Positions 1-9,346 of a stretch of 10,929 nt of DNA are shown here, piece by piece. The stretch lies in the IMG/VR virus record IMGVR_UViG_2698536418_000009, positions 1 through 10,929 of that record; one strand, given 5' to 3'. Below the pieces are notes generated by a model, which was not told where the DNA came from, did not search any database, and worked only from the letters and a program-made list of their open reading frames with translations. The stretch is from a virus (lineage: Duplodnaviria; Heunggongvirae; Uroviricota; Caudoviricetes). The translations under genes and the position numbers were made by a program. Within the stretch, counting starts at the first letter, position 1, and every line of letters begins with the position of its first letter.

Positions 1-272
1 CCGCGATTGACATACATCGGCGTTTCGGTGGTGTCTTCTTCGGAAATTTTCCCGCGGTTAGTCGGGCGAACATATGAGAGTTTGTGTTTTATTTTCACAC
101 GGTTCTCATCAAACGGTTCGATTTCCAGGTTGAGCGAGACCTTACCTTTGGTTTTCGTGTTCATCACACCGGAAGCGACTTCACTGAGAACTGCGCCGAT
201 TTTGGTTTCAAATACGCCGCCGTCCAGCTCCCCGATAAATGCCTGCACATCAGTACTGCGTTCGCTAGCCAT
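1..272 (-). CDS. Hypothetical early-left-operon protein, partial (start ATG at 272-270, runs off the left edge of the window); N-terminus MASERSTDVQAFIGELDGG...
   Basis: Reverse-strand frame open for 90 codons from ATG (plus 270-272) to the window edge. GAGGAG Shine-Dalgarno 7 nt upstream (rev-comp of 282-287). Not in the ORF track because no stop lies inside the window. Confidence 0.5.
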   Translation of the reverse strand, partial: MASERSTDVQAFIGELDGGVFETKIGAVLSEVASGVMNTKTKGKVSLNLEIEPFDENRVKIKHKLSYVRPTNRGKISEEDTTETPMYVNR

Positions 273-299
273 TTTGCTGCTCCTCATCATATCGACCCT

Positions 300-620
300 G
301 CAAGGTCGGTTGGTTTCTCCACAAAACAGAGAAGAACACCTGCGGTGGCAGCCGCCCGGATGGATTGGGTTATGAGCCCGTCGTCCGGTGATGCTCTTCT
401 CTGTTTTGTAAAAAGGACGGTACCAGCCGGAAGCAAGGATACAAGCTGATACCGCCAAGACTACACACAGCATAAAGTTGTGGTGCCGGGTGCCTCCCGG
501 TGCCTGGCGAAGGTTGCACACCAGGCGGGTGGGTATCCACAGAAGGTCGACTGTCAGCCTCAACCTTAACCCGCGTGCGCTGAGTCGCATTCACCACAAC
601 GCTAAGGATTCTCTTTGGTT
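300..620. other. GC-rich structured non-coding stretch with a perfect 15-bp inverted repeat (321-335 / 395-409) enclosing a 59-nt loop; candidate RNA element
   Basis: ACAAAACAGAGAAGA at 321-335 is the exact reverse complement of TCTTCTCTGTTTTGT at 395-409. Further short GC stems downstream (CCTGG...CCAGG, CCGGG...CCCGG). The only ORFs here are Pro/Arg-rich, implausible products. Confidence 0.3.
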
Positions 621-861
621 GAAAATACTTAGCTGTTATGTGCCTGTCTTTTCACCACTTCAGGCTCGGTGGTATCTTGGTGTTTTCATATAGCCAAGAA
701 GGAAATAGTTATGACCAAAGAAGAAAAATTCTTTATTTATTCCAACTATCGGTTAAGACTCGCACTGCATATCAGACTGCTGCCATGACATCAGATAAAA
801 ATTACAGTACGTCAGAAAACCCGATAGACGACATAAGCAAGCTTTACGATAGTTCGAAGCA

Positions 862-1038
862 CTACTCGATAAAAAGTTTGCTGAGGCTGGGCTTGAGTGA
901 TTGTTGAATAATCGACAAAACCCAACTTAAATTTTCGTCAGTGGGCTCGATGCCATGTGCGGTGAGCTCACTTTTCAAAACTCCAAGCAATTCAGAGCTG
1001 ATTTTCAATATATCTGCTTGAGTTCTAACTATTCCCAC
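862..1038 (-). CDS. Hypothetical small protein of the leftward early operon (58 aa from GTG; alternative ATG start at 1068 gives 68 aa)
   Basis: ORF track 862..1068 minus. Strong SD AGGGAGG (rev-comp) about 5 nt upstream of in-frame GTG at 1038-1036; the ATG at 1068 has no SD. Same orientation as neighbouring early-left genes. Confidence 0.4.
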   Translation of the reverse strand: MGIVRTQADILKISSELLGVLKSELTAHGIEPTDENLSWVLSIIQQSLKPSLSKLFIE

Positions 1039-1127
1039 TTTTTCCTCCCTTGGTCTACGCGCGGTCATGTTTTACGCCCAAACGACTTCACAGTTATTGT
1101 TTAAAATCTGGACTTTCATTTTGTTCT

Positions 1128-1441: not shown

Positions 1442-1474
1442 AATCTAGTTGTTGTTTTGGTTGTTGTCAACAAC
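1442..1474 (-). promoter_or_regulatory. pL-like leftward early promoter with overlapping operator palindrome (OL)
   Basis: On the minus strand: -35 TTGACA (plus 1465-1470), 17-bp spacer, -10 TAGATT (plus 1442-1447). Palindrome GTTGTTG-T-CAACAAC at 1460-1474 overlaps the -35; another GTTGTTG at 1448-1454. Confidence 0.4.
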
Positions 1475-1664: not shown

Positions 1665-2351
1665 TTACCAAGTGCGCGATGACCAGAATACTCTACCTAT
1701 AACGTGAATTCTGGAACGCCTATCTTCGAAGGTGAGTATTTCATCTGGATACTCATCTTTATTGAAACTTCTTAGAATCAGACCACCGTCAGGTAAATTG
1801 ATCAATATTTTAACTCTAAGTAATACGCCATCACGTATGGCATAAAGATCCCCATCACGAATAGGAACCGTTTGGGAAACATCAACAGCAACAAAATCTC
1901 CATTGTTAAGTACAGGTAGTAAACTATTGCCCCAAATTTTTACGATCTTTGCATTGGAGACACATACACCAGCTTTTCTTAAATCAATCCTTCTTAGCGG
2001 GAACCAGTCTACAGTTGATTCAACTATTTCAGCCAAACATCCATTACCCGCTGATAACTCGACATCTAGGACTGGAATGTTTGCAAAAATGTCAGGATCT
2101 AATGCTGTACTTTCAGCCTCCTTTACAACAAGGTCTGGGAAAGACGCGTTATCCTCAATTCCCAATTGCAACCACTTTTGAGAAACCCCTAACACTTTAG
2201 CAATCTCTTTAATTTTCCGAGGCTGTTGAGTTTCTCCATTCTCGATTTTCGCTACGGATTGTTGTGAAAGCCCAATTTTTTCAGCTAGTTGCGCCTGACT
2301 CATTCCTGCTTTTTCTCTTTCGCTTTTTAGTCTTTCTGCCAATGTTTTCAC
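1665..2351 (-). CDS. cI: Phage CI-type repressor: N-terminal XRE-family HTH plus C-terminal S24 (LexA-like) autopeptidase domain
   Basis: 228-aa ORF. N-terminus has the HTH_XRE signature (AGMSQAQLAEKIGLSQQSVAKIENGETQQP); the C-terminal half has the size and layout of an S24 peptidase domain, but I did not identify the catalytic Ser/Lys. Transcribed divergently from the cro-like gene. GTG start with GAGGGGGA SD. Confidence 0.88.
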   Translation of the reverse strand: MKTLAERLKSEREKAGMSQAQLAEKIGLSQQSVAKIENGETQQPRKIKEIAKVLGVSQKWLQLGIEDNASFPDLVVKEAESTALDPDIFANIPVLDVELSAGNGCLAEIVESTVDWFPLRRIDLRKAGVCVSNAKIVKIWGNSLLPVLNNGDFVAVDVSQTVPIRDGDLYAIRDGVLLRVKILINLPDGGLILRSFNKDEYPDEILTFEDRRSRIHVIGRVFWSSRTW

Positions 2352-3197: not shown

Positions 3198-3492
3198 GAG
3201 CATGCAGCACTGGTCTACAAAATCTTTTGCGCTCCAGAAGAGAGTAACGCCCGCGAGTGTGCAGCTCCGGGCGTCGTGGCGTCGATTGCTTCTGGTTGTG
3301 GAGAAACTAACGCATGAACAGTTTAACAACACACTACCGTCGCTCGCAACTGATTGCGCTTCCTGTACCGGGTGGAAAAGCGAAGGTGGAGTATTGCTAT
3401 GCAGTGAATGTACCAGGTGACAGGGAAATTGTAACCCACAGCTTTGCAGAGTGGGCTGTGGGTGATTTCAACCGGCAGAAGGAGACAGTCCT

Positions 3493-3705
3493 TTGCGACA
3501 AGTTAACCGCTGGTTCAAAGATCACTACGGAGTGCCCGTCAGAGTCATTCGTTGGGAGCCGGAAACACAACGGGTTATCTACCTCCGTGAAGGCTATGAA
3601 CATGAATGCTTCAGTCCGCTCGAACAGTTTCGTCGTAAATTCAGGGAAATAGAGGTCGGTCATGAGCCTGTTAATGACATCCCAGCCCATTGTGATAAAT
3701 CGTGA
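3493..3705 (+). CDS. Small conserved protein (70 aa, TTG start) directly upstream of and overlapping the O-like gene
   Basis: AAGGAG SD (3479-3484) 8 nt upstream of TTG 3493. All five nucleotide differences between the two copies in this ORF (3573, 3588, 3600, 3606, 3615) are synonymous third-position changes in this frame and would be nonsynonymous in the overlapping frame of ORF 3314..3652. Confidence 0.5.
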
Positions 3706-4021
3706 TCTTGCATGCCGTATTGGTCTGAATGAGGCAATTGTGTTGCAGCAGCTTCATTACTGGCTGAATGAAACGAATTCAGGCACTGAGCATGGCGGAA
3801 TTCGCTGGGTTTATAACACGACAGAACAGTGGCTGGAGCAGTTTCCGTTCTGGTCAGAGTCCACTCTGAAACGCACATTTGCAAGCCTGAAATCACTTGG
3901 GGTTTTGCGTCGCGAGCAACTCAATAAATCGAAGCGTGACATGACCAACTTCTACACGATCAACTATGAAAGTGAGCTTTTAGAAGAGGTCAAAATGCAC
4001 TTCTCCATCGGGTCAAAGTGA
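3662..4021 (+). CDS. O-like replication initiator, N-terminal DNA-binding domain (119 aa), separated from the C-terminal domain by an in-iteron TGA stop and frame change
   Basis: GAGGT SD before ATG 3662. Product ends ...HFSIGSK inside the iteron array. The next ORF (4026..4631) is in a different frame and matches the C-terminal two-thirds of the intact O-like protein at 6552..7493. Confidence 0.55.
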   Translation: MSLLMTSQPIVINRDLACRIGLNEAIVLQQLHYWLNETNSGTEHGGIRWVYNTTEQWLEQFPFWSESTLKRTFASLKSLGVLRREQLNKSKRDMTNFYTINYESELLEEVKMHFSIGSK

Positions 4022-4138
4022 CCTGATGGATGGGCGCAAAATGATACGATCCATTGGTTCAAAACGACACGCTGTCATCGGGTCAAAATGGCCCAATGAT
4101 CTTACAGAGAATACAACAGAGATTACTACAGAGAATAA
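3986..4138 (+). repeat. Candidate ori iterons of copy 1: four GGTCAAA-core repeats (3986-4000, 4008-4023, 4054-4070, 4078-4094) plus three tandem 12-bp A-rich repeats (4103-4138)
   Basis: Direct repeats GAGGTCAAAATGCAC / TCGGGTCAAAGTGACC / TTGGTTCAAAACGACAC / TCGGGTCAAAATGGCCC, then TACAGAGAATAC / AACAGAGATTAC / TACAGAGAATAA. They sit at the N-domain/C-domain junction of the O-like gene, the same place lambda ori sits in gene O. Confidence 0.5.
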
Positions 4139-4631
4139 AACCTCTTCTCGTCCGGACGCTTCGCAACCGGACACGCAAACGGCTGAACAGGAGTTTTTAA
4201 CTCGCCATCCTGATGCGGTTGTATTCAGCCCTAAAAAGCGCCAGTGGGGAACGCAGGATGATTTGACCTGCGCACAGTGGCTCTGGAAAAAAATCATCGC
4301 CCTGTACGAGCAGGCCGCCGAATGTGACGGCGAGGTGGTTCGTCCCAAAGAACCGAACTGGACAGCATGGGCAAACGAAATTCGCCTGATGTGTGTGCAG
4401 GATGGTCGTACTCACAAACAAATCTGCGAGATGTACAGCCGCGTCAGCCGCGATCCGTTCTGGTGCCGTAACGTGCTCAGCCCGTCGAAGTTGCGGGAAA
4501 AATGGGATGAGCTTTCCCTGCGCTTATCGCCGTCCGTCAGCACGCACACAGAAAAACGTGAAGACCCGTACTTCAAAGCCAGTTACGACAACGTGGACTA
4601 CAGCCAGATCCCGGCAGGATTCAGGGGGTGA
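4026..4631 (+). CDS. O-like replication initiator, C-terminal domain ORF (201 aa); possibly the 3' part of a disrupted O gene
   Basis: Residues from TSSRPDASQPDTQTAEQ onward match the C-terminal region of ORF 6552..7493 apart from a few substitutions. Weak SD before ATG 4026. Confidence 0.55.
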   Translation: MDGRKMIRSIGSKRHAVIGSKWPNDLTENTTEITTENKTSSRPDASQPDTQTAEQEFLTRHPDAVVFSPKKRQWGTQDDLTCAQWLWKKIIALYEQAAECDGEVVRPKEPNWTAWANEIRLMCVQDGRTHKQICEMYSRVSRDPFWCRNVLSPSKLREKWDELSLRLSPSVSTHTEKREDPYFKASYDNVDYSQIPAGFRG

Positions 4632-4633
4632 TC

Positions 4634-4726
4634 ATGAGTCTGTTAAATGACGTTCAGAAATTCATTGAAGCCCATCCGGGCTGTACTTCCGGAGACATTG
4701 CGGATGCTTTTTACGTGGGGGCTTAA
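4634..4726 (+). pseudogene. 30-codon remnant of the PerC-like regulator gene (in-frame 396-bp internal deletion relative to 7496..7984)
   Basis: Encodes MSLLNDVQKFIEAHPGCTSGDIADAF + YVGA, i.e. the first 26 and last 4 codons of the 162-aa copy-2 protein. Deletion junction near 4708-4712 in a short T-run. The stop/start overlap TAATG with the methyltransferase gene is retained. Confidence 0.5.
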
Positions 4727-5379
4727 TGAGTAATAAATATTGCCAGGCGCTGGTAGAACTGCGGAACAAACCAGCCCATGAACTGAAGGAAGTGGGCGAT
4801 CAGTGGCGCACGCCGGACAACATTTTCTGGGGAATTAACACCTTGTTTGGTCCGTTTGTTCTGGATCTGTTCACTGACGGTGATAACGCCAAATGTGCCG
4901 CGTATTACACGGCGGAAGACAACGCGCTGGCGCATGACTGGTCAGAACGTCTTGCGGAGCTTAAAGGTGCTGCCTTTGGCAATCCCCCGTACAGCCGCGC
5001 CAGTCAGCATGAGGGGCAATACATCACCGGCATGCGTTACATCATGAAGCATGCCAGTGCCATGCGTGATAAAGGCGGGCGCTATGTTTTCCTGATCAAA
5101 GCTGCCACCGGCGAAGTGTGGTGGCCGGAAGGTGCAGATCATATTGCTTTTATTCGCGGGCGTATTGGTTTTGAACTGCCTGCCTGGTTTATCCCGAAAG
5201 ACGAAAAGCAGGTGCCAACAGGTGCTTTCTTCGCTGGTGCTATTGCTGTTTTCGACAAGACCTGGAAGGGACCGGCAATCAGCTACATCGGGCGCGATGA
5301 ACTTGAGGCATGTGGTGAGGCATTTCTGGCGCAGGTTCGCCAGCAGGCGGAAAAACTGGTCAGGGAGATGGTGGCATGA
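4726..5379 (+). CDS. Phage DNA N6-adenine methyltransferase (orphan, Dam-like), copy 1
   Basis: 217 aa with the catalytic motif GNPPYS (the (D/N/S)PP(Y/F) motif IV of N6-adenine MTases). Start overlaps the upstream stop (TAATG); stop overlaps the rusA start (ATGA). Confidence 0.8.
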   Translation: MSNKYCQALVELRNKPAHELKEVGDQWRTPDNIFWGINTLFGPFVLDLFTDGDNAKCAAYYTAEDNALAHDWSERLAELKGAAFGNPPYSRASQHEGQYITGMRYIMKHASAMRDKGGRYVFLIKAATGEVWWPEGADHIAFIRGRIGFELPAWFIPKDEKQVPTGAFFAGAIAVFDKTWKGPAISYIGRDELEACGEAFLAQVRQQAEKLVREMVA

Positions 5380-5765
5380 AGCTAATACTGCCTTTTCCGC
5401 CCAGCGTGAACACGTACTGGCGACACCCCAACAAAGGGGCATTTGCTGGTAAGAGCCTGATAAGCGAGGCGGGGCGAAAATTTCAGAGCGCGGCGTGTGC
5501 CGCCATCATTGAGCAGTTACGTCGTCTGCCGAAACCAACGTCGGCACCTGCTTCAGTGGAGATCGTGTTGTTTCCTCCGGATAACAGGATCCGCGATCTG
5601 GACAACTATAACAAGGCGCTGTTTGACGCCCTGACCCACGCGGGTGTGTGGGAAGACGACAGTCAGGTGAAAAGAATGCTGGTGGAGTGGGGACCGGTTA
5701 TCCCGAAAGGGAAGGTCGAGATCACTATCAGTAAGTACGAGAAAACGGCGGGTGCAGCCGCCTGA
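5376..5765 (+). CDS. rusA: RusA-family Holliday junction resolvase, copy 1
   Basis: 129 aa; MKLILPFPPSVNTYW... and RDLDNYNKALFDALTHAGVWEDDSQV follow the RusA layout. Typical nin-region position. Confidence 0.85.
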   Translation: MKLILPFPPSVNTYWRHPNKGAFAGKSLISEAGRKFQSAACAAIIEQLRRLPKPTSAPASVEIVLFPPDNRIRDLDNYNKALFDALTHAGVWEDDSQVKRMLVEWGPVIPKGKVEITISKYEKTAGAAA

Positions 5766-5784: not shown

Positions 5785-6207
5785 ATGAATAATCTGATGG
5801 TCATTGATGGTATTGAAGTTCGTCGTGATGTTTATGGGCGTTACAGCCTGAACGATCTACATCACGCAGCAGTAGCATCTGGTGCAAATGCCAGAACCAA
5901 GGAGCCAGGAAAGTTTCTTTCCAGCCAACAAACTGTTGAACTTGTTCATGAATTGACCAACACCCAGAATTTGGGTGTTGACCCGGTGAGTGTGATTCAT
6001 GGGGGAAATGAACGGGGAACGTATGTCTGCAAGGAACTGGTGTATGCCTATGCAATGTGGATCAGCCCGTCATTCCATCTGAAGGTGATCCGTACTTTCG
6101 ATATGGTAACCAGCGCACCGGAAAAATTATCCGGACAGGCTGCTGACAAGATGCAGGCTGGCGTGATCCTGCTGGACTTTATGCGATGTGGAGAAACTAA
6201 CGCATGA
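5785..6207 (+). CDS. KilA-N domain protein, copy 1, C-terminally truncated at the duplication junction (140 aa)
   Basis: AGGAG SD 9 nt before ATG 5785. Matches the first 133 residues of ORF 9366..10175, then diverges at 6186 into 7 novel codons (CGETNA plus stop) supplied by the start of unit 2. Confidence 0.65.
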
Positions 6208-6382
6208 ACAGTTTAACAACACACTACCGTCGCTCGCAACTGATTGCGCTTCCTGTACCGGGTGGAAAAGCGAAGGTGGAGTATTGCTATGCAGTAAATG
6301 TACCAGGTGACAGGGAAATTGTAACCCACAGCTTTGCAGAGTGGGCTGTGGGTGATTTCAACCGGCAGAAGGAGACAGTCCT

Positions 6383-6562
6383 TTGCGACAAGTTAACCGC
6401 TGGTTCAAAGATCACTACGGAGTGCCCGTCAGAGTCATTCGTTGGGAGCCGGAAACACAACGTGTTATCTACCTCCGCGAAGGCTATGAGCATGAGTGCT
6501 TCAGCCCGCTCGAACAGTTTCGTCGTAAATTCAGGGAAATAGAGGTCGGTCATGAGCACTAA
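6383..6562 (+). CDS. Small conserved protein, copy 2 (59 aa, TTG start), overlapping the start of the intact O-like gene
   Basis: Same SD and TTG as at 3493; coding sequence differs from copy 1 only by synonymous changes up to the repeat boundary. Below the ORF-track length cutoff. Confidence 0.45.
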
Positions 6563-7493
6563 ATTAACCGGCTATGTATGGGATGGTTGCGCTGCATCAG
6601 GCATGAAATTATCCAGCGTGGCAATTATGGCCCGCCTGGCTGATTTCAGTAATGACGAAGGTGTGTGCTGGCCATCAATTGAAACCATTGCCCGCCAGAT
6701 TGGCGCGGGGATGAGTACCGTCAGAACGGCTATCGCACGGCTGGAAGCAGAAGGCTGGTTAACGCGTAGGGCGCGTCGCCAGGGTAACCGCAATGCGTCG
6801 AATGTTTATCAGCTTAACGTTGCGAAGCTTCAGGCAGCGGCATTTTCTCAACTGTCAGATTCTGACCCGTCAAAATCTGACGCATCAAAATCTGACCCGT
6901 CAAAATTTGATGCGTCGAAATCTGGCAAAAAAGCGGGTTTTCACCCGTCAGAATCTGGTGGGGATCCGTCAGTAAAATCAAAACATGATCCGTCAGATAA
7001 AAAAACTTCTCGTCCGGACGCTTCGCAACCGGACACGCAGACGGCTGAACAGGATTTTTTAACTCGCCATCCTGATGCGGTTGTATTCAGCCCTAAAAAG
7101 CGCCAGTGGGGGACGCAGGATGATTTGACCTGCGCACAGTGGCTCTGGAAAAAAATCATCGCCCTGTACGAGCATGCCGCCGAATGTGACGGCGAGGTGG
7201 TTCGTCCCAAAGAACCGAACTGGACAGCCTGGGCAAACGAAATTCGCCTGATGTGTGTGCAGGATGGTCGTACTCATAAACAAATCTGCGAGATGTACAG
7301 CCGCGTCAGTCGCGATCCGTTCTGGTGCCGTAACGTGCTCAGCCCGTCGAAGCTGCGGGAAAAATGGGATGAGCTTTCCCTGCGCTTATCGCCGTCCGTC
7401 AGCACGTACACCGAAAAACGCGAAGACCCGTACTTCAAAGCCAGTTACGACAACGTGGACTACAGCCAGATCCCGGCAGGATTCAGGGGGTGA
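6552..7493 (+). CDS. O-like replication initiator (replisome organizer), intact, 313 aa: N-terminal winged-helix DNA-binding domain, iteron-encoded linker, conserved C-terminal domain
   Basis: GAGGT SD 5 nt before ATG 6552. The N-terminal 90 aa look like a helix-turn-helix replication-initiator fold. The linker is encoded by tandem 15-bp repeats (SDPSK/SDASK). C-terminal domain shared with ORF 4026..4631. Confidence 0.75.
   Translation: MSTKLTGYVWDGCAASGMKLSSVAIMARLADFSNDEGVCWPSIETIARQIGAGMSTVRTAIARLEAEGWLTRRARRQGNRNASNVYQLNVAKLQAAAFSQLSDSDPSKSDASKSDPSKFDASKSGKKAGFHPSESGGDPSVKSKHDPSDKKTSRPDASQPDTQTAEQDFLTRHPDAVVFSPKKRQWGTQDDLTCAQWLWKKIIALYEHAAECDGEVVRPKEPNWTAWANEIRLMCVQDGRTHKQICEMYSRVSRDPFWCRNVLSPSKLREKWDELSLRLSPSVSTYTEKREDPYFKASYDNVDYSQIPAGFRG
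6861..7006 (+). repeat. Candidate ori iterons of copy 2: four tandem 15-bp repeats (consensus about CCGTCAAAATCTGAC, 6866-6925), an A-rich tract, and three degenerate CCGTCAG-containing repeats
   Basis: CCGTCAAAATCTGAC / GCATCAAAATCTGAC / CCGTCAAAATTTGAT / GCGTCGAAATCTGGC, then GGCAAAAAAGCGGG, then CCCGTCAGAATCTGG, TCCGTCAGTAAAATC, TCCGTCAGATAAAAAAAC. Located inside the O-like gene linker. Confidence 0.55.
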
Positions 7494-7495
7494 TC

Positions 7496-7984
7496 ATGAG
7501 TCTTTTGAATGACGTTCAGAAATTCATTGAAGCCCATCCGGGGTGTACTTCCGGAGACATTGCGGATGCTTTTGCAGGTTACTCACGACAGCGCGTTCTG
7601 CAGTCAGCAAGCAAGTTACGTCAGAGTGGGCGTGTGGCTCACCGTTGTGAAGGGGATACACGCAGACATTTCCCGCGGCTGACTGAGATACCGCAGGAGC
7701 CGGAACCGCAACCAGTTCGTGAATCCAGACCTGTGCGCAATTTCTATGTCGGCACTAACGATCCCCGGGTGATTTTGTGCCTGACCCGCCAGGCGGAAGA
7801 ACTGGAGTCCAGGGGCTTATACCGTCGTGCTGCAACGGTGTGGATGGCGGCATTCCGTGAAAGCCACTCCCAGCAAGAGCGAAACAATTTTCTGGCGCGT
7901 CGTGAGCGGTGTTTACGGAAAAGCAGCAAGCGCGCTGCATCGGGTGAAGAGTGGTATCTGTCAGGGAATTACGTGGGGGCTTAA
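7496..7984 (+). CDS. PerC-like transcriptional regulator with N-terminal HTH-like region (162 aa)
   Basis: C-terminal motif AEELESRGLYRRAATVWMAAF resembles the PerC/Pch family signature as I remember it. AGGGGG SD before ATG 7496. Stop overlaps the MTase start (TAATG). Confidence 0.5.
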   Translation: MSLLNDVQKFIEAHPGCTSGDIADAFAGYSRQRVLQSASKLRQSGRVAHRCEGDTRRHFPRLTEIPQEPEPQPVRESRPVRNFYVGTNDPRVILCLTRQAEELESRGLYRRAATVWMAAFRESHSQQERNNFLARRERCLRKSSKRAASGEEWYLSGNYVGA

Positions 7985-8637
7985 TGAGTAATAAATATTG
8001 CCAGGCGCTGGTGGAGCTGCGGAACAAACCAGCCCATGAACTGAAGGAAGTGGGCGATCAGTGGCGCACGCCGGACAACATTTTCTGGGGAATTAACACC
8101 CTGTTTGGCCCGTTTGTTCTGGATCTGTTTACTGATGGTGATAACGCCAAATGCGCCGCGTATTACACTGCGGAAGACAACGCGCTGGCGCATGACTGGT
8201 CAGAACGTCTTGCGGAGCTTAAAGGTGCTGCCTTTGGTAATCCCCCGTACAGCCGCGCCAGTCAGCATGAGGGGCAATACATCACCGGCATGCGTTACAT
8301 CATGAAGCATGCCAGTGCCATGCGTGATAAAGGCGGGCGCTATGTTTTCCTGATCAAAGCTGCCACCAGCGAAGTTTGGTGGCCGGAAGATGCAGACCAT
8401 ATTGCTTTTATTCGCGGGCGTATTGGTTTTGAACTGCCAGCCTGGTTTATCCCGAAGGACGAGAAGCAGGTGCCGACAGGCGCTTTCTTCGCTGGTGCTA
8501 TTGCTGTTTTCGACAAGACCCGGAAGGGACCGGCAATCAGCTACATCGGGCGCGATGAACTTGAGGCATGTGGTGAGGCCTTTCTGGCGCAGGTTCGCCA
8601 GCAGGCGGAAAAACTGGTCAGGGAGATGGCGGCATGA
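7984..8637 (+). CDS. Phage DNA N6-adenine methyltransferase (orphan, Dam-like), copy 2
   Basis: 217 aa with GNPPYS motif. Differs from copy 1 by about 20 nt substitutions counted by eye, giving 4 amino-acid changes. The track start at 7951 is an upstream GTG; the ATG at 7984 matches copy 1. Confidence 0.8.
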   Translation: MSNKYCQALVELRNKPAHELKEVGDQWRTPDNIFWGINTLFGPFVLDLFTDGDNAKCAAYYTAEDNALAHDWSERLAELKGAAFGNPPYSRASQHEGQYITGMRYIMKHASAMRDKGGRYVFLIKAATSEVWWPEDADHIAFIRGRIGFELPAWFIPKDEKQVPTGAFFAGAIAVFDKTRKGPAISYIGRDELEACGEAFLAQVRQQAEKLVREMAA

Positions 8638-8960
8638 CGACGTTAACTCAATGCCAGCAGCAGGTGCTGGATATGCTGATTTCTTACCAGCAAGAACGTG
8701 GCTTTCCGCCAACCAATCAGGAGGTGGCAACCATGCTGGGATACCGTTCGGTGAATGCAGCGGTGGAGCATCTTCGCGCACTGGAGAAAAAAGGCGTCAT
8801 CACGATAAAGCGTGGCGTGGCCCGGGGGATAACTCTTCATACCGCGGTGAAGGACGACGACAGCGAGGCGGTCGGGATTATCCGCGCACTGCTTGCCGGT
8901 GAGGAAAACGCCAGGCTGCGTGCAGCCCACTGGTTACATGAGAGGGGCCTGAAAGTATGA
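8634..8960 (+). CDS. LexA N-terminal DNA-binding-domain protein lacking the S24 peptidase domain (108 aa)
   Basis: TQCQQQVLDMLISYQQERGFPPTNQEVATMLGYRSVNAAVEHLRALEKKGVITIKRGVARGITL aligns with the E. coli LexA winged-helix DNA-binding domain (...[62 protein letters not shown]). No peptidase domain follows. ATGA overlaps at both ends. Confidence 0.7.
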   Translation: MTTLTQCQQQVLDMLISYQQERGFPPTNQEVATMLGYRSVNAAVEHLRALEKKGVITIKRGVARGITLHTAVKDDDSEAVGIIRALLAGEENARLRAAHWLHERGLKV

Positions 8961-9346
8961 AGCTGATCTTGCCTTTCCCGCCCAGCGTGAACACGTACTG
9001 GCGACACCCCAACAAAGGGGCGTTTGCTGGTAAGAGTCTGATAAGCGCAGCGGGGCGCAAATTCCAGAGCGCGGCGTGCGCAGCAATAGTTGAGCAGTTA
9101 CGTCGTCTGCCGAAACCAACGTCGGCACCTGCTTCAGTGGAGATCGTGTTGTTTCCTCCGGATAACCGGATCCGCGATCTGGACAACTATAACAAGGCGC
9201 TGTTTGACGCCCTGACCCATGCGGGTGTGTGGGAAGACGACAGTCAGGTGAAAAGAATGCTGGTGGAGTGGGGACCGGTTATCCCGAAAGGGAAGGTCGA
9301 GATCACTATCAGTAAGTACGAGAAAACGGCGGGTGCAGCCGCCTGA
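8957..9346 (+). CDS. rusA: RusA-family Holliday junction resolvase, copy 2
   Basis: 129 aa, 2 amino-acid differences from copy 1. Start overlaps the stop of the upstream LexA-DBD gene. Confidence 0.85.
   Translation: MKLILPFPPSVNTYWRHPNKGAFAGKSLISAAGRKFQSAACAAIVEQLRRLPKPTSAPASVEIVLFPPDNRIRDLDNYNKALFDALTHAGVWEDDSQVKRMLVEWGPVIPKGKVEITISKYEKTAGAAA

Follow-up and report, generated by a model that had tools for sequence, protein, structure and literature searches.

What is the function of the GC-rich, non-coding stretch that precedes a yfdP-like gene in the early region of a lambdoid prophage? The locus is at the left end of a 10,929-nucleotide piece of viral DNA, hereafter called the window. The preliminary description, made from the letters alone, treated positions 300–620 as one structured element and considered an RNase III processing site, a retroregulation site or a small RNA.

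The interval belongs to the early-left (PL) transcript of a lambdoid prophage of the SfV/ST64B type. Positions 250–700 match an E. coli chromosome at 99.8% identity and phage SfV at ~98%, and GC content is 0.55–0.565 at 300–600 versus 0.38–0.43 at 600–2400. Read along the minus strand, a PL-like promoter at 1470–1442, placed left of a cI-like repressor gene, is followed by two small open reading frames (one of which carries a ClpX-type zinc finger), by the GC-rich non-coding stretch and by the yfdP-like gene. ‘Protein YfdP’ is the RefSeq annotation at the homologous place. This promoter would drive a leftward early transcript with an sRNA module, a terminator, a large hairpin and the yfdP-like gene. 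The order in the GC-rich part is sRNA module, intrinsic terminator, large hairpin starting from the U-run, small hairpin at 308–293, Shine-Dalgarno sequence and yfdP. The landmarks are these:

1665–2351, minus strand: cI-like repressor gene, with HTH_3 and Peptidase_S24 domains (Pfam).
1442–1470, minus strand: PL-like sigma-70 promoter (TTGACA, 17 nt, TAGATT), a consensus match only, with 10 of 12 positions matching in a consensus scan.
457–622, minus strand: body of an STnc100/PasD-like sRNA module, with a closing stem GUUGUGGUG/CACCACAAC around internal hairpins.
410–456, minus strand: intrinsic terminator of the sRNA module, a 13-bp stem (456–444/428–416) followed by C and U5 at 414–410, from the fold of 260–640.
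293–308, minus strand: small hairpin CGACC-UUGCAG-GGUCG between the junction element described below and the ribosome-binding site, from the fold of 260–640.
1–285, minus strand: Shine-Dalgarno sequence GAGGAG (285–280) and yfdP-like gene (ATG at 272–270), read from the sequence; the gene leaves the window at its left edge.

A few other properties of the region should be pointed out. Between PL and the sRNA module there is a 68-aa open reading frame at 862–1068 (minus strand) that has an arginine-rich N-terminus (MTARRPREEK...) and no Pfam match. A scan of 410–1470 on the minus strand, i.e. between the PL-like promoter and the terminator at 456–410, reveals no boxA and no recognisable N-like antiterminator. 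A replication/nin block of 2.5–3 kb is present twice in the window, at 3297–5765 and 6187–9346, with 94–99% identity. Each copy encodes a Dam methyltransferase, RusA and a KilA-N protein, and the copies differ in a 201-aa open reading frame (4026–4631) in the first versus a 313-aa HTH_36 initiator-like open reading frame (6552–7493) in the second.

In homologues the place of the small hairpin is taken by another stem, e.g. GGCGG...CCGCC or GCGCC...GGCGC, with a GCAG-containing loop always kept. In many loci (the place is seen in L005, L008–L010, L012 and others) the sequence is GGCGGT(G/T/A)GC...GCCGCC, and 8–10 of 12 positions match the RfaH ops element, GGCGGTAGnnTG. The small hairpin of the window is not ops-like.

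The yfdP gene of K-12 CPS-53 is preceded by neither the sRNA-like module nor the large hairpin. Its upstream region is unrelated (L003, 7248–7604), and identity with the window starts ~15–16 nt 5′ of the ATG. A reading of pawZ as a DicF-like gene in CPS-53 was considered and is wrong; CPS-53 carries yfdP without the element.

The large hairpin is essentially as first described. A repeat search returns the perfect 15-bp inverted repeat, ACAAAACAGAGAAGA at 321–335, with its exact reverse complement at 395–409 and 59 nt between them. With mismatches allowed, the repeat is 25 nt long (321–345/385–409, 84%). RNA folding, which had been suggested as a check, shows that minus-strand 315–415 forms a 25-bp stem (G-U pairs included) that closes a three-way junction, and the GC-rich loop, said to contain internal short stems, folds as two sub-hairpins. 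The minimum free energy is –51.2 kcal/mol versus a shuffle mean of –25.5 (z = –7.8), a value that none of 200 shuffles equals; the plus-strand fold of the hairpin region is weaker, at –46.2. The stem is 49 nt from the ATG of the yfdP-like gene on the minus strand, where a distance of about 50 nt had been given. The junction has the following parts:

315–415, minus strand: three-way-junction leader RNA, consisting of P1, hairpin A and hairpin B, defined by the fold, covariation, RNAalifold and covariance model R1.
390–414, minus strand: 5′ arm of P1, with the perfect 15-mer at 409–395 and a conserved 20-nt arm at 409–390; the terminator U-run 414–410 is within the stem.
316–340, minus strand: 3′ arm of P1, in which 340–321 pairs with 390–409 and GGAGA at 320–316 pairs with the U-run.
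356–388, minus strand: hairpin A, with the closing stem CCGGA/UCCGG and the module GACGGGCUCAUAACCCAAUCC at 382–362.
342–355, minus strand: hairpin B (GCGG-CUGCCA-CCGC), the variable arm, a hairpin in all homologues with sequence and length that vary.

The large hairpin is not a terminator, as had been stated, and a U-run is absent 3′ of it on both strands. A U5 run directly 5′ of the hairpin, at 414–410 on the minus strand, had been overlooked, and it is part of the separate terminator hairpin at 456–416. The interval 300–620 does not represent one element, as was proposed, but two features, and 622–411 is a separate STnc100/PasD/DicF-like module that ends in a terminator of its own. Both STnc100 and PasD are known from the literature as sRNAs of prophages. 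The Rfam search that had been recommended gives no match in the window at gathering thresholds, and a permissive scan shows sub-threshold STnc100 and DicF matches only, beside the hairpin. STnc100 (RF02076) aligns at 622–407 with 38.6 bits (gathering 47, E = 6.8e-7), and because this score is below threshold, family membership of the 457–622 module is not established. The DicF match (RF00039, at 469–415) has 26.4 bits versus a gathering threshold of 48; only the terminator hairpin aligns and not the DicF seed, and a true dicF scores 76.7 bits. In the K-12 Qin prophage, dicF and dicB flank the same STnc100-like module (34.4 bits). The large hairpin at 415–315 lies outside both models. An RNase III cut at the 3′ end of DicF was considered as a precedent and set aside, since the paper on K-12 dicBF places the cut 5′ of DicF, not 3′.

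Does the pairing persist in homologues? The preliminary description had named this beforehand as the question on which its interpretation turned, and compensatory changes are found in 8 of the 33 pairs. In covariation set A4, with 28 distinct homologues, 95% of cells are paired compared with 37–51% in slid controls, and the covariation score is reached by none of 500 shuffles. An example is alignment columns 18/115, where 17 sequences have G-C and 11 have C-G. An independent run of RNAalifold results in the identical three-way-junction architecture. The data also point to the strand. In 27 of 28 sequences columns 28/105 form a U-G pair, which like other G-U pairs here is possible only in minus-strand RNA, and covariance model R1 gives 120 bits on the minus strand versus 38 bits on the plus strand. 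The G-U pairs and the model scores favour minus-strand RNA. The view of a structured non-coding RNA in the leftward (minus-strand) early transcript is upheld. The P1 core is also well kept: 108 of 112 distinct type-A copies retain 18 or more of its 20 pairs, and in 83 of the 112 the stem is mismatched at its centre.

These properties bear on two other interpretations. In one, the repeat is a feature of the DNA itself: a palindromic protein-binding or recombination site, a junction for mosaic exchange, or the decayed remnant of a tRNA-fMet/att site. Inter-phage homology often ends exactly at the element edges, like that at lambdoid module boundaries, and anticodon arms are common integrase targets. 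However, the conserved G-U pairs are A-C mismatches on the other strand and are meaningless in duplex DNA. The variable arm, hairpin B, is from 14 to ~40 nt long among homologues and has unrelated sequences, but its hairpin fold is always present. Other tRNA parts are absent. A DNA-level role is considered highly improbable.

In the other interpretation the DNA encodes protein. RefSeq/PGAP places a ‘hypothetical protein, frameshifted’ pseudo-CDS over 287–597, and some phage records have a hypothetical CDS here. Mechanically called open reading frames do cover the region, 49 aa (287–436) and 75 aa (370–597) on the minus strand and 121–122 aa on the plus strand. But the CDS is marked frameshifted every time, the overlapping reading frames have no Pfam match, and the substitutions are those that compensate for RNA pairing. 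Element lengths among homologues, 89–114 nt, cover every residue class mod 3, with indels between conserved blocks, and fit no reading frame; a variable arm that differs by any number of bases rules out coding. The earlier statement that there is no convincing open reading frame therefore stands, and the chance that this DNA codes for protein is close to nil.

The junction RNA belongs to a conserved phage RNA motif that has gone without annotation. BLAST finds the element in 71 phage records, with 98–100% identity in SfV, SfII, SfIV, mEp460, cdtI and Stx2a/Stx2c phages and ~85% identity in ST64B, F1055, 118970_sal3 and Klebsiella Kp4866-6. It is present in 2492 of 5426 complete E. coli genomes (46%), with up to 5 copies per genome. 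No second copy in the same phage was found within the ~5–15 kb around each locus. A pattern scan with one genome per species gave 26 loci, 22 of which are in Enterobacterales (14 genera). The pattern scans required the core (19 specified bases); with 596 Gb searched, ~4 chance matches are calculated to be expected. Among the out-of-context matches, L022 is probably a chance match; L024 and L034 are real copies, with the full architecture and a phage late-operon context.

At two other places the 21-nt core is at the tip of an unrelated long hairpin. One is in an Acidobacteriaceae MAG (L023, 2541–2637), beside prophage-like genes that include a lysin; its homology is uncertain, given the ~4 chance matches of the search pattern expected in the genome collection. 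The other (L071, 10375–10577) is ahead of YqaJ/RecT-like recombination genes.

The genomic context of the element is highly regular. A hairpin and U-run are directly 5′ of it in 98 of 109 distinct contexts and are displaced by a few bases in most of the others. The first downstream open reading frame begins at a median of 30 nt past the stem, and is mostly YfdP-like, otherwise RdgC-like, YfdR-like or other. A literature search yielded no paper that describes the element. The core sequence was found in none, the SfIV genome paper makes no mention of the element, and cleavage, transcript-end or binding data for it were not found in that search. The svsR sRNA of the NC-SV prophage was compared as a candidate and is a different element, located at the 3′ end of cI.

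The apex of the structure is its most conserved part. The window contains the core GACGGGCUCAUAACCCAAUCC a single time, at 382–362, and the number expected by chance is 0. Among pattern-selected copies the apical module, G-AC-GGG-CUCAU(AA)-CCC-AAUC-C, is almost invariant, although this is in part an ascertainment effect because the scans required the core. A sample of 79 loci was chosen by YfdP homology, not by the core, and 73 of these have the element; the loop is CUCAUAA in 43, CUCAUUC in 25 (one clade) and CUCAUUA in 5. Across context types the G-C closing pair, the AC/AAUC internal loop and GGG/CCC are fixed, and the closing stem of hairpin A displays covariation in 6 of 7 pairs across all of them. 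The constrained part of the loop is CUCAU, which carries the YUNR motif, reportedly a U-turn loop motif.

Not mentioned in the preliminary description is the likeness of this apex to initiator tRNA. GGG-CUCAUAA-CCC at 379–367 is the tRNA-fMet anticodon arm, and a 14-mer, CGGGCUCAUAACCC, is identical in hairpin A and metZ. Model R1 has local matches to the anticodon arms of all four K-12 tRNA-fMet genes (metZWV and metY). At the level of sequence, the window copy is a hairpin that reproduces the anticodon stem-loop of a specific tRNA. It is not a tRNA gene: ARAGORN finds none in the window, and the junction has only two arms and no cloverleaf. Although most copies equal the anticodon arm of initiator tRNA, the mimicry is inexact, since loop positions 37–38 vary (AA, UA or UC in the YfdP-homology sample).

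Perhaps imitation of the initiator-tRNA anticodon arm is the primary function, with the apex serving as a decoy, a sponge or a translational operator and the long stem as a scaffold. The RNA would act in cis or once released. The partner might be the 30S P site together with IF3, or MetRS, or else an anticodon nuclease; one example is enteric VapC, which reportedly cuts tRNA-fMet between A38 and C39. The identity of GGG-CUCAUAA-CCC to tRNA-fMet includes C28, and by calculation a 100-nt element is not expected to contain a chance match of 13–14 nt to one of ~40 anticodon arms. The apex is the sole part that is conserved across subtypes that differ in stems, second arm and neighbours, and its context suggests expression confined to lytic RNAs that start at strong phage promoters. 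Yet the loop is CUCAUUC in one clade and CUCAUUA in others, such that A37 and A38 are dispensable, and the AC/AAUC internal loop replaces the rest of the anticodon stem. The negative tRNA search by ARAGORN also weighs against it, as does a literature search that gave no paper tying tRNA-fMet cleavage to phage defence at the locus. Mimicry as the primary role is thus possible but doubtful.

The same loop invites an antisense interpretation, in which CUCAU, with its YUNR U-turn motif, starts rapid pairing with an AUGAG target, such as the region of a start codon, in trans or in cis, in the style of CopA or Sok. AUGAG is indeed found in many yfdP-type start regions. Pairing of the loop with the downstream start codon was rejected, however, as positions 37–38 show no covariation with the bases that precede the downstream AUG, and ACCAUGAGU is found with all three loop variants. 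In addition, there is no AUGA within 120 nt in 12 of 84 distinct contexts with a CUCAUAA loop, and RdgC-type downstream genes begin with AUGAA or AUGCA. An antisense role seems quite unlikely.

The apical module is found again, on different scaffolds, in late-operon leaders between Q genes and holin/lysin genes. The adjacent Q antiterminators belong to three Pfam families, PF06323, PF06530 and PF03589, and most of these copies (L087, L034, L024/L040 and others) are behind tR′-like terminators. The outer stems of these type-B copies are 5–7 bp, and that of L034 is ~16 bp with internal loops.

In late-leader copies such as L087 (7941–8110) and L173, the 3′ arm of the element runs straight into an STnc100-like motif that starts GUUGUGGUGAAUGCG. 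The STnc100-like part of the late leaders is 92% identical to lambda DNA, in a stretch that, by a coordinate estimate, is presumably between tR′ and S, and it is also found in P7 and rV5-like phages. The three modules, ‘sRNA + terminator’, ‘junction element’ and ‘STnc100-like RNA’, seem to have been shuffled between PL and PR′ leaders.

An RNA at the head of long phage operons raises the question of antitermination: a put-like or nut-like RNA, or an anti-Rho RNA, that modifies RNA polymerase for the long downstream operon. Two adjacent stem-loops are reminiscent of HK022 put, the 3′ arm of some homologues has a boxA-like sequence, UGCUCUUU, and an N/nut system is not visible in the window. But the boxA-like letters covary with their pairing partners, and the window reads UGUUCUUC; boxA-like matches (YGCUCUUUA) in the window are at chance frequency with none in the leader. 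The element comes after, not before, the first terminator, and it is present in Q-controlled late leaders, where Q already antiterminates. Neither model R1 nor Rfam STnc100 has a match in the HK022 immunity/put regions (23000–32000), and a similarity to boxB of phage 21 is not in the same fold. Such a function is very unlikely.

What, then, might the leader do? The tentative proposal favoured here has three parts: the leader is on read-through transcripts only, the basal duplex is an RNase III substrate and the apex is a recognition site for a host component. As the motif is 3′ of a terminator, it would be present only on transcripts that read through, i.e. during lytic development, and it would act post-transcriptionally on these RNAs. 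In the type-A form, a basal duplex of 20–25 bp takes in the terminator U-tract and may serve as a substrate of RNase III. This enzyme accommodates a duplex of ~22 bp; the window copy, with 25 bp including G-U pairs, reaches the ~20–22 bp size, and by its position would have a complete duplex only on terminator read-through RNA. By cleavage, the upstream sRNA would be separated from the mRNA of the yfdP operon, this mRNA would gain a new 5′ end, and the apical junction would be freed as a small stable RNA.

A long duplex is not found wherever the motif occurs, and with type-B outer stems of 5–7 bp, RNase III cleavage cannot be the function of the whole family. Nor can RNase III alone explain the invariant apex, since the apex recurs in those late-leader copies. 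Its conservation far exceeds the needs of a nuclease site, so recognition by a conserved host component is its most likely role. Recognition would be sequence-specific, through the G-C closing pair, the AC/AAUC internal loop, the three G-C pairs and the CUCAU-NN loop with its YUNR U-turn. Since phages with unrelated Q proteins and unrelated early genes share the motif, a host partner is preferred over a phage protein. The identity of the apex with the initiator anticodon arm, as read from the sequence, suggests a partner in the translation-initiation machinery or among the enzymes that act on tRNA-fMet. A broader proposal, which we consider unlikely, is that temperate enteric phages and possibly others make an initiator-tRNA-mimic RNA by lytic read-through, which is freed from its scaffold and acts on the readers of initiator tRNA. 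If true, the RNA might be a decoy or inhibitor for VapC-type toxins that cleave tRNA-fMet, or a ligand of the 30S P site/IF3 that controls translation of the phage operon.

This is an undescribed leader RNA motif, with no Rfam family and no paper found in the literature search. The element is in almost half of complete E. coli genomes and in well-known phages, and yet is annotated as nothing or as a ‘frameshifted hypothetical protein’. Its placement is that of a control point: it forms the first RNA bases to be made only once polymerase has gone beyond a promoter-proximal terminator. The early-left operon has this arrangement and so, for the related copies, does the late lysis operon. A description would add an RNA family to annotation pipelines and remove a recurrent false pseudogene. 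The element also bears on the way in which sRNA genes of prophages are set apart from the read-through mRNAs. The mimicry, if functional, would represent a new phage route to translation initiation or to tRNA-targeting toxins.

How does the locus compare with known systems? The module at 622–410 resembles STnc100, PasD and DicF, ends in a DicF-like terminator hairpin and shares their prophage early-region setting, but both the STnc100 and the DicF match are below Rfam gathering thresholds, and hairpin 415–315 matches neither. HK022 put and the element each have a pair of neighbouring stem-loops within an early or late leader of lambdoid type; put, however, precedes terminators and has no enclosing duplex, whereas the window element follows a terminator.

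The E. coli thrS mRNA operator is a mimic of the tRNA-Thr anticodon arm in an mRNA leader, and it binds ThrRS. Both it and the window element are 5′-leader hairpins that copy the anticodon arm of one tRNA just 5′ of a start codon. The window element differs in that it mimics the initiator Met tRNA, has no synthetase gene downstream and varies in the 3′ positions of the loop. In the leader of the E. coli metY-rimP-nusA-infB operon, tRNA-fMet and terminators are followed by an RNase III hairpin. The order is alike, i.e. a tRNA-fMet-type sequence, a terminator and a structured processing region before an operon, but model R1 matches only the anticodon arm of the true tRNA (10.7 bits), and the leader is not homologous.

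The lambda sib/tI retroregulator, T7 R1–R5 and the lambda N leader are phage RNase III sites. Like these, the window element has a long intramolecular duplex, of a size suited to RNase III, in a phage early transcript. As in sib/tI, part of a terminator is built in and the duplex is complete only upon read-through. The sequence, however, is unrelated to sib/tI and to the other phage RNase III sites, and the window element has a conserved three-way-junction apex that such sites do not need. The arrangement also differs: sib is 3′ of int, whereas the window element is 5′ of protein genes and 3′ of an sRNA.
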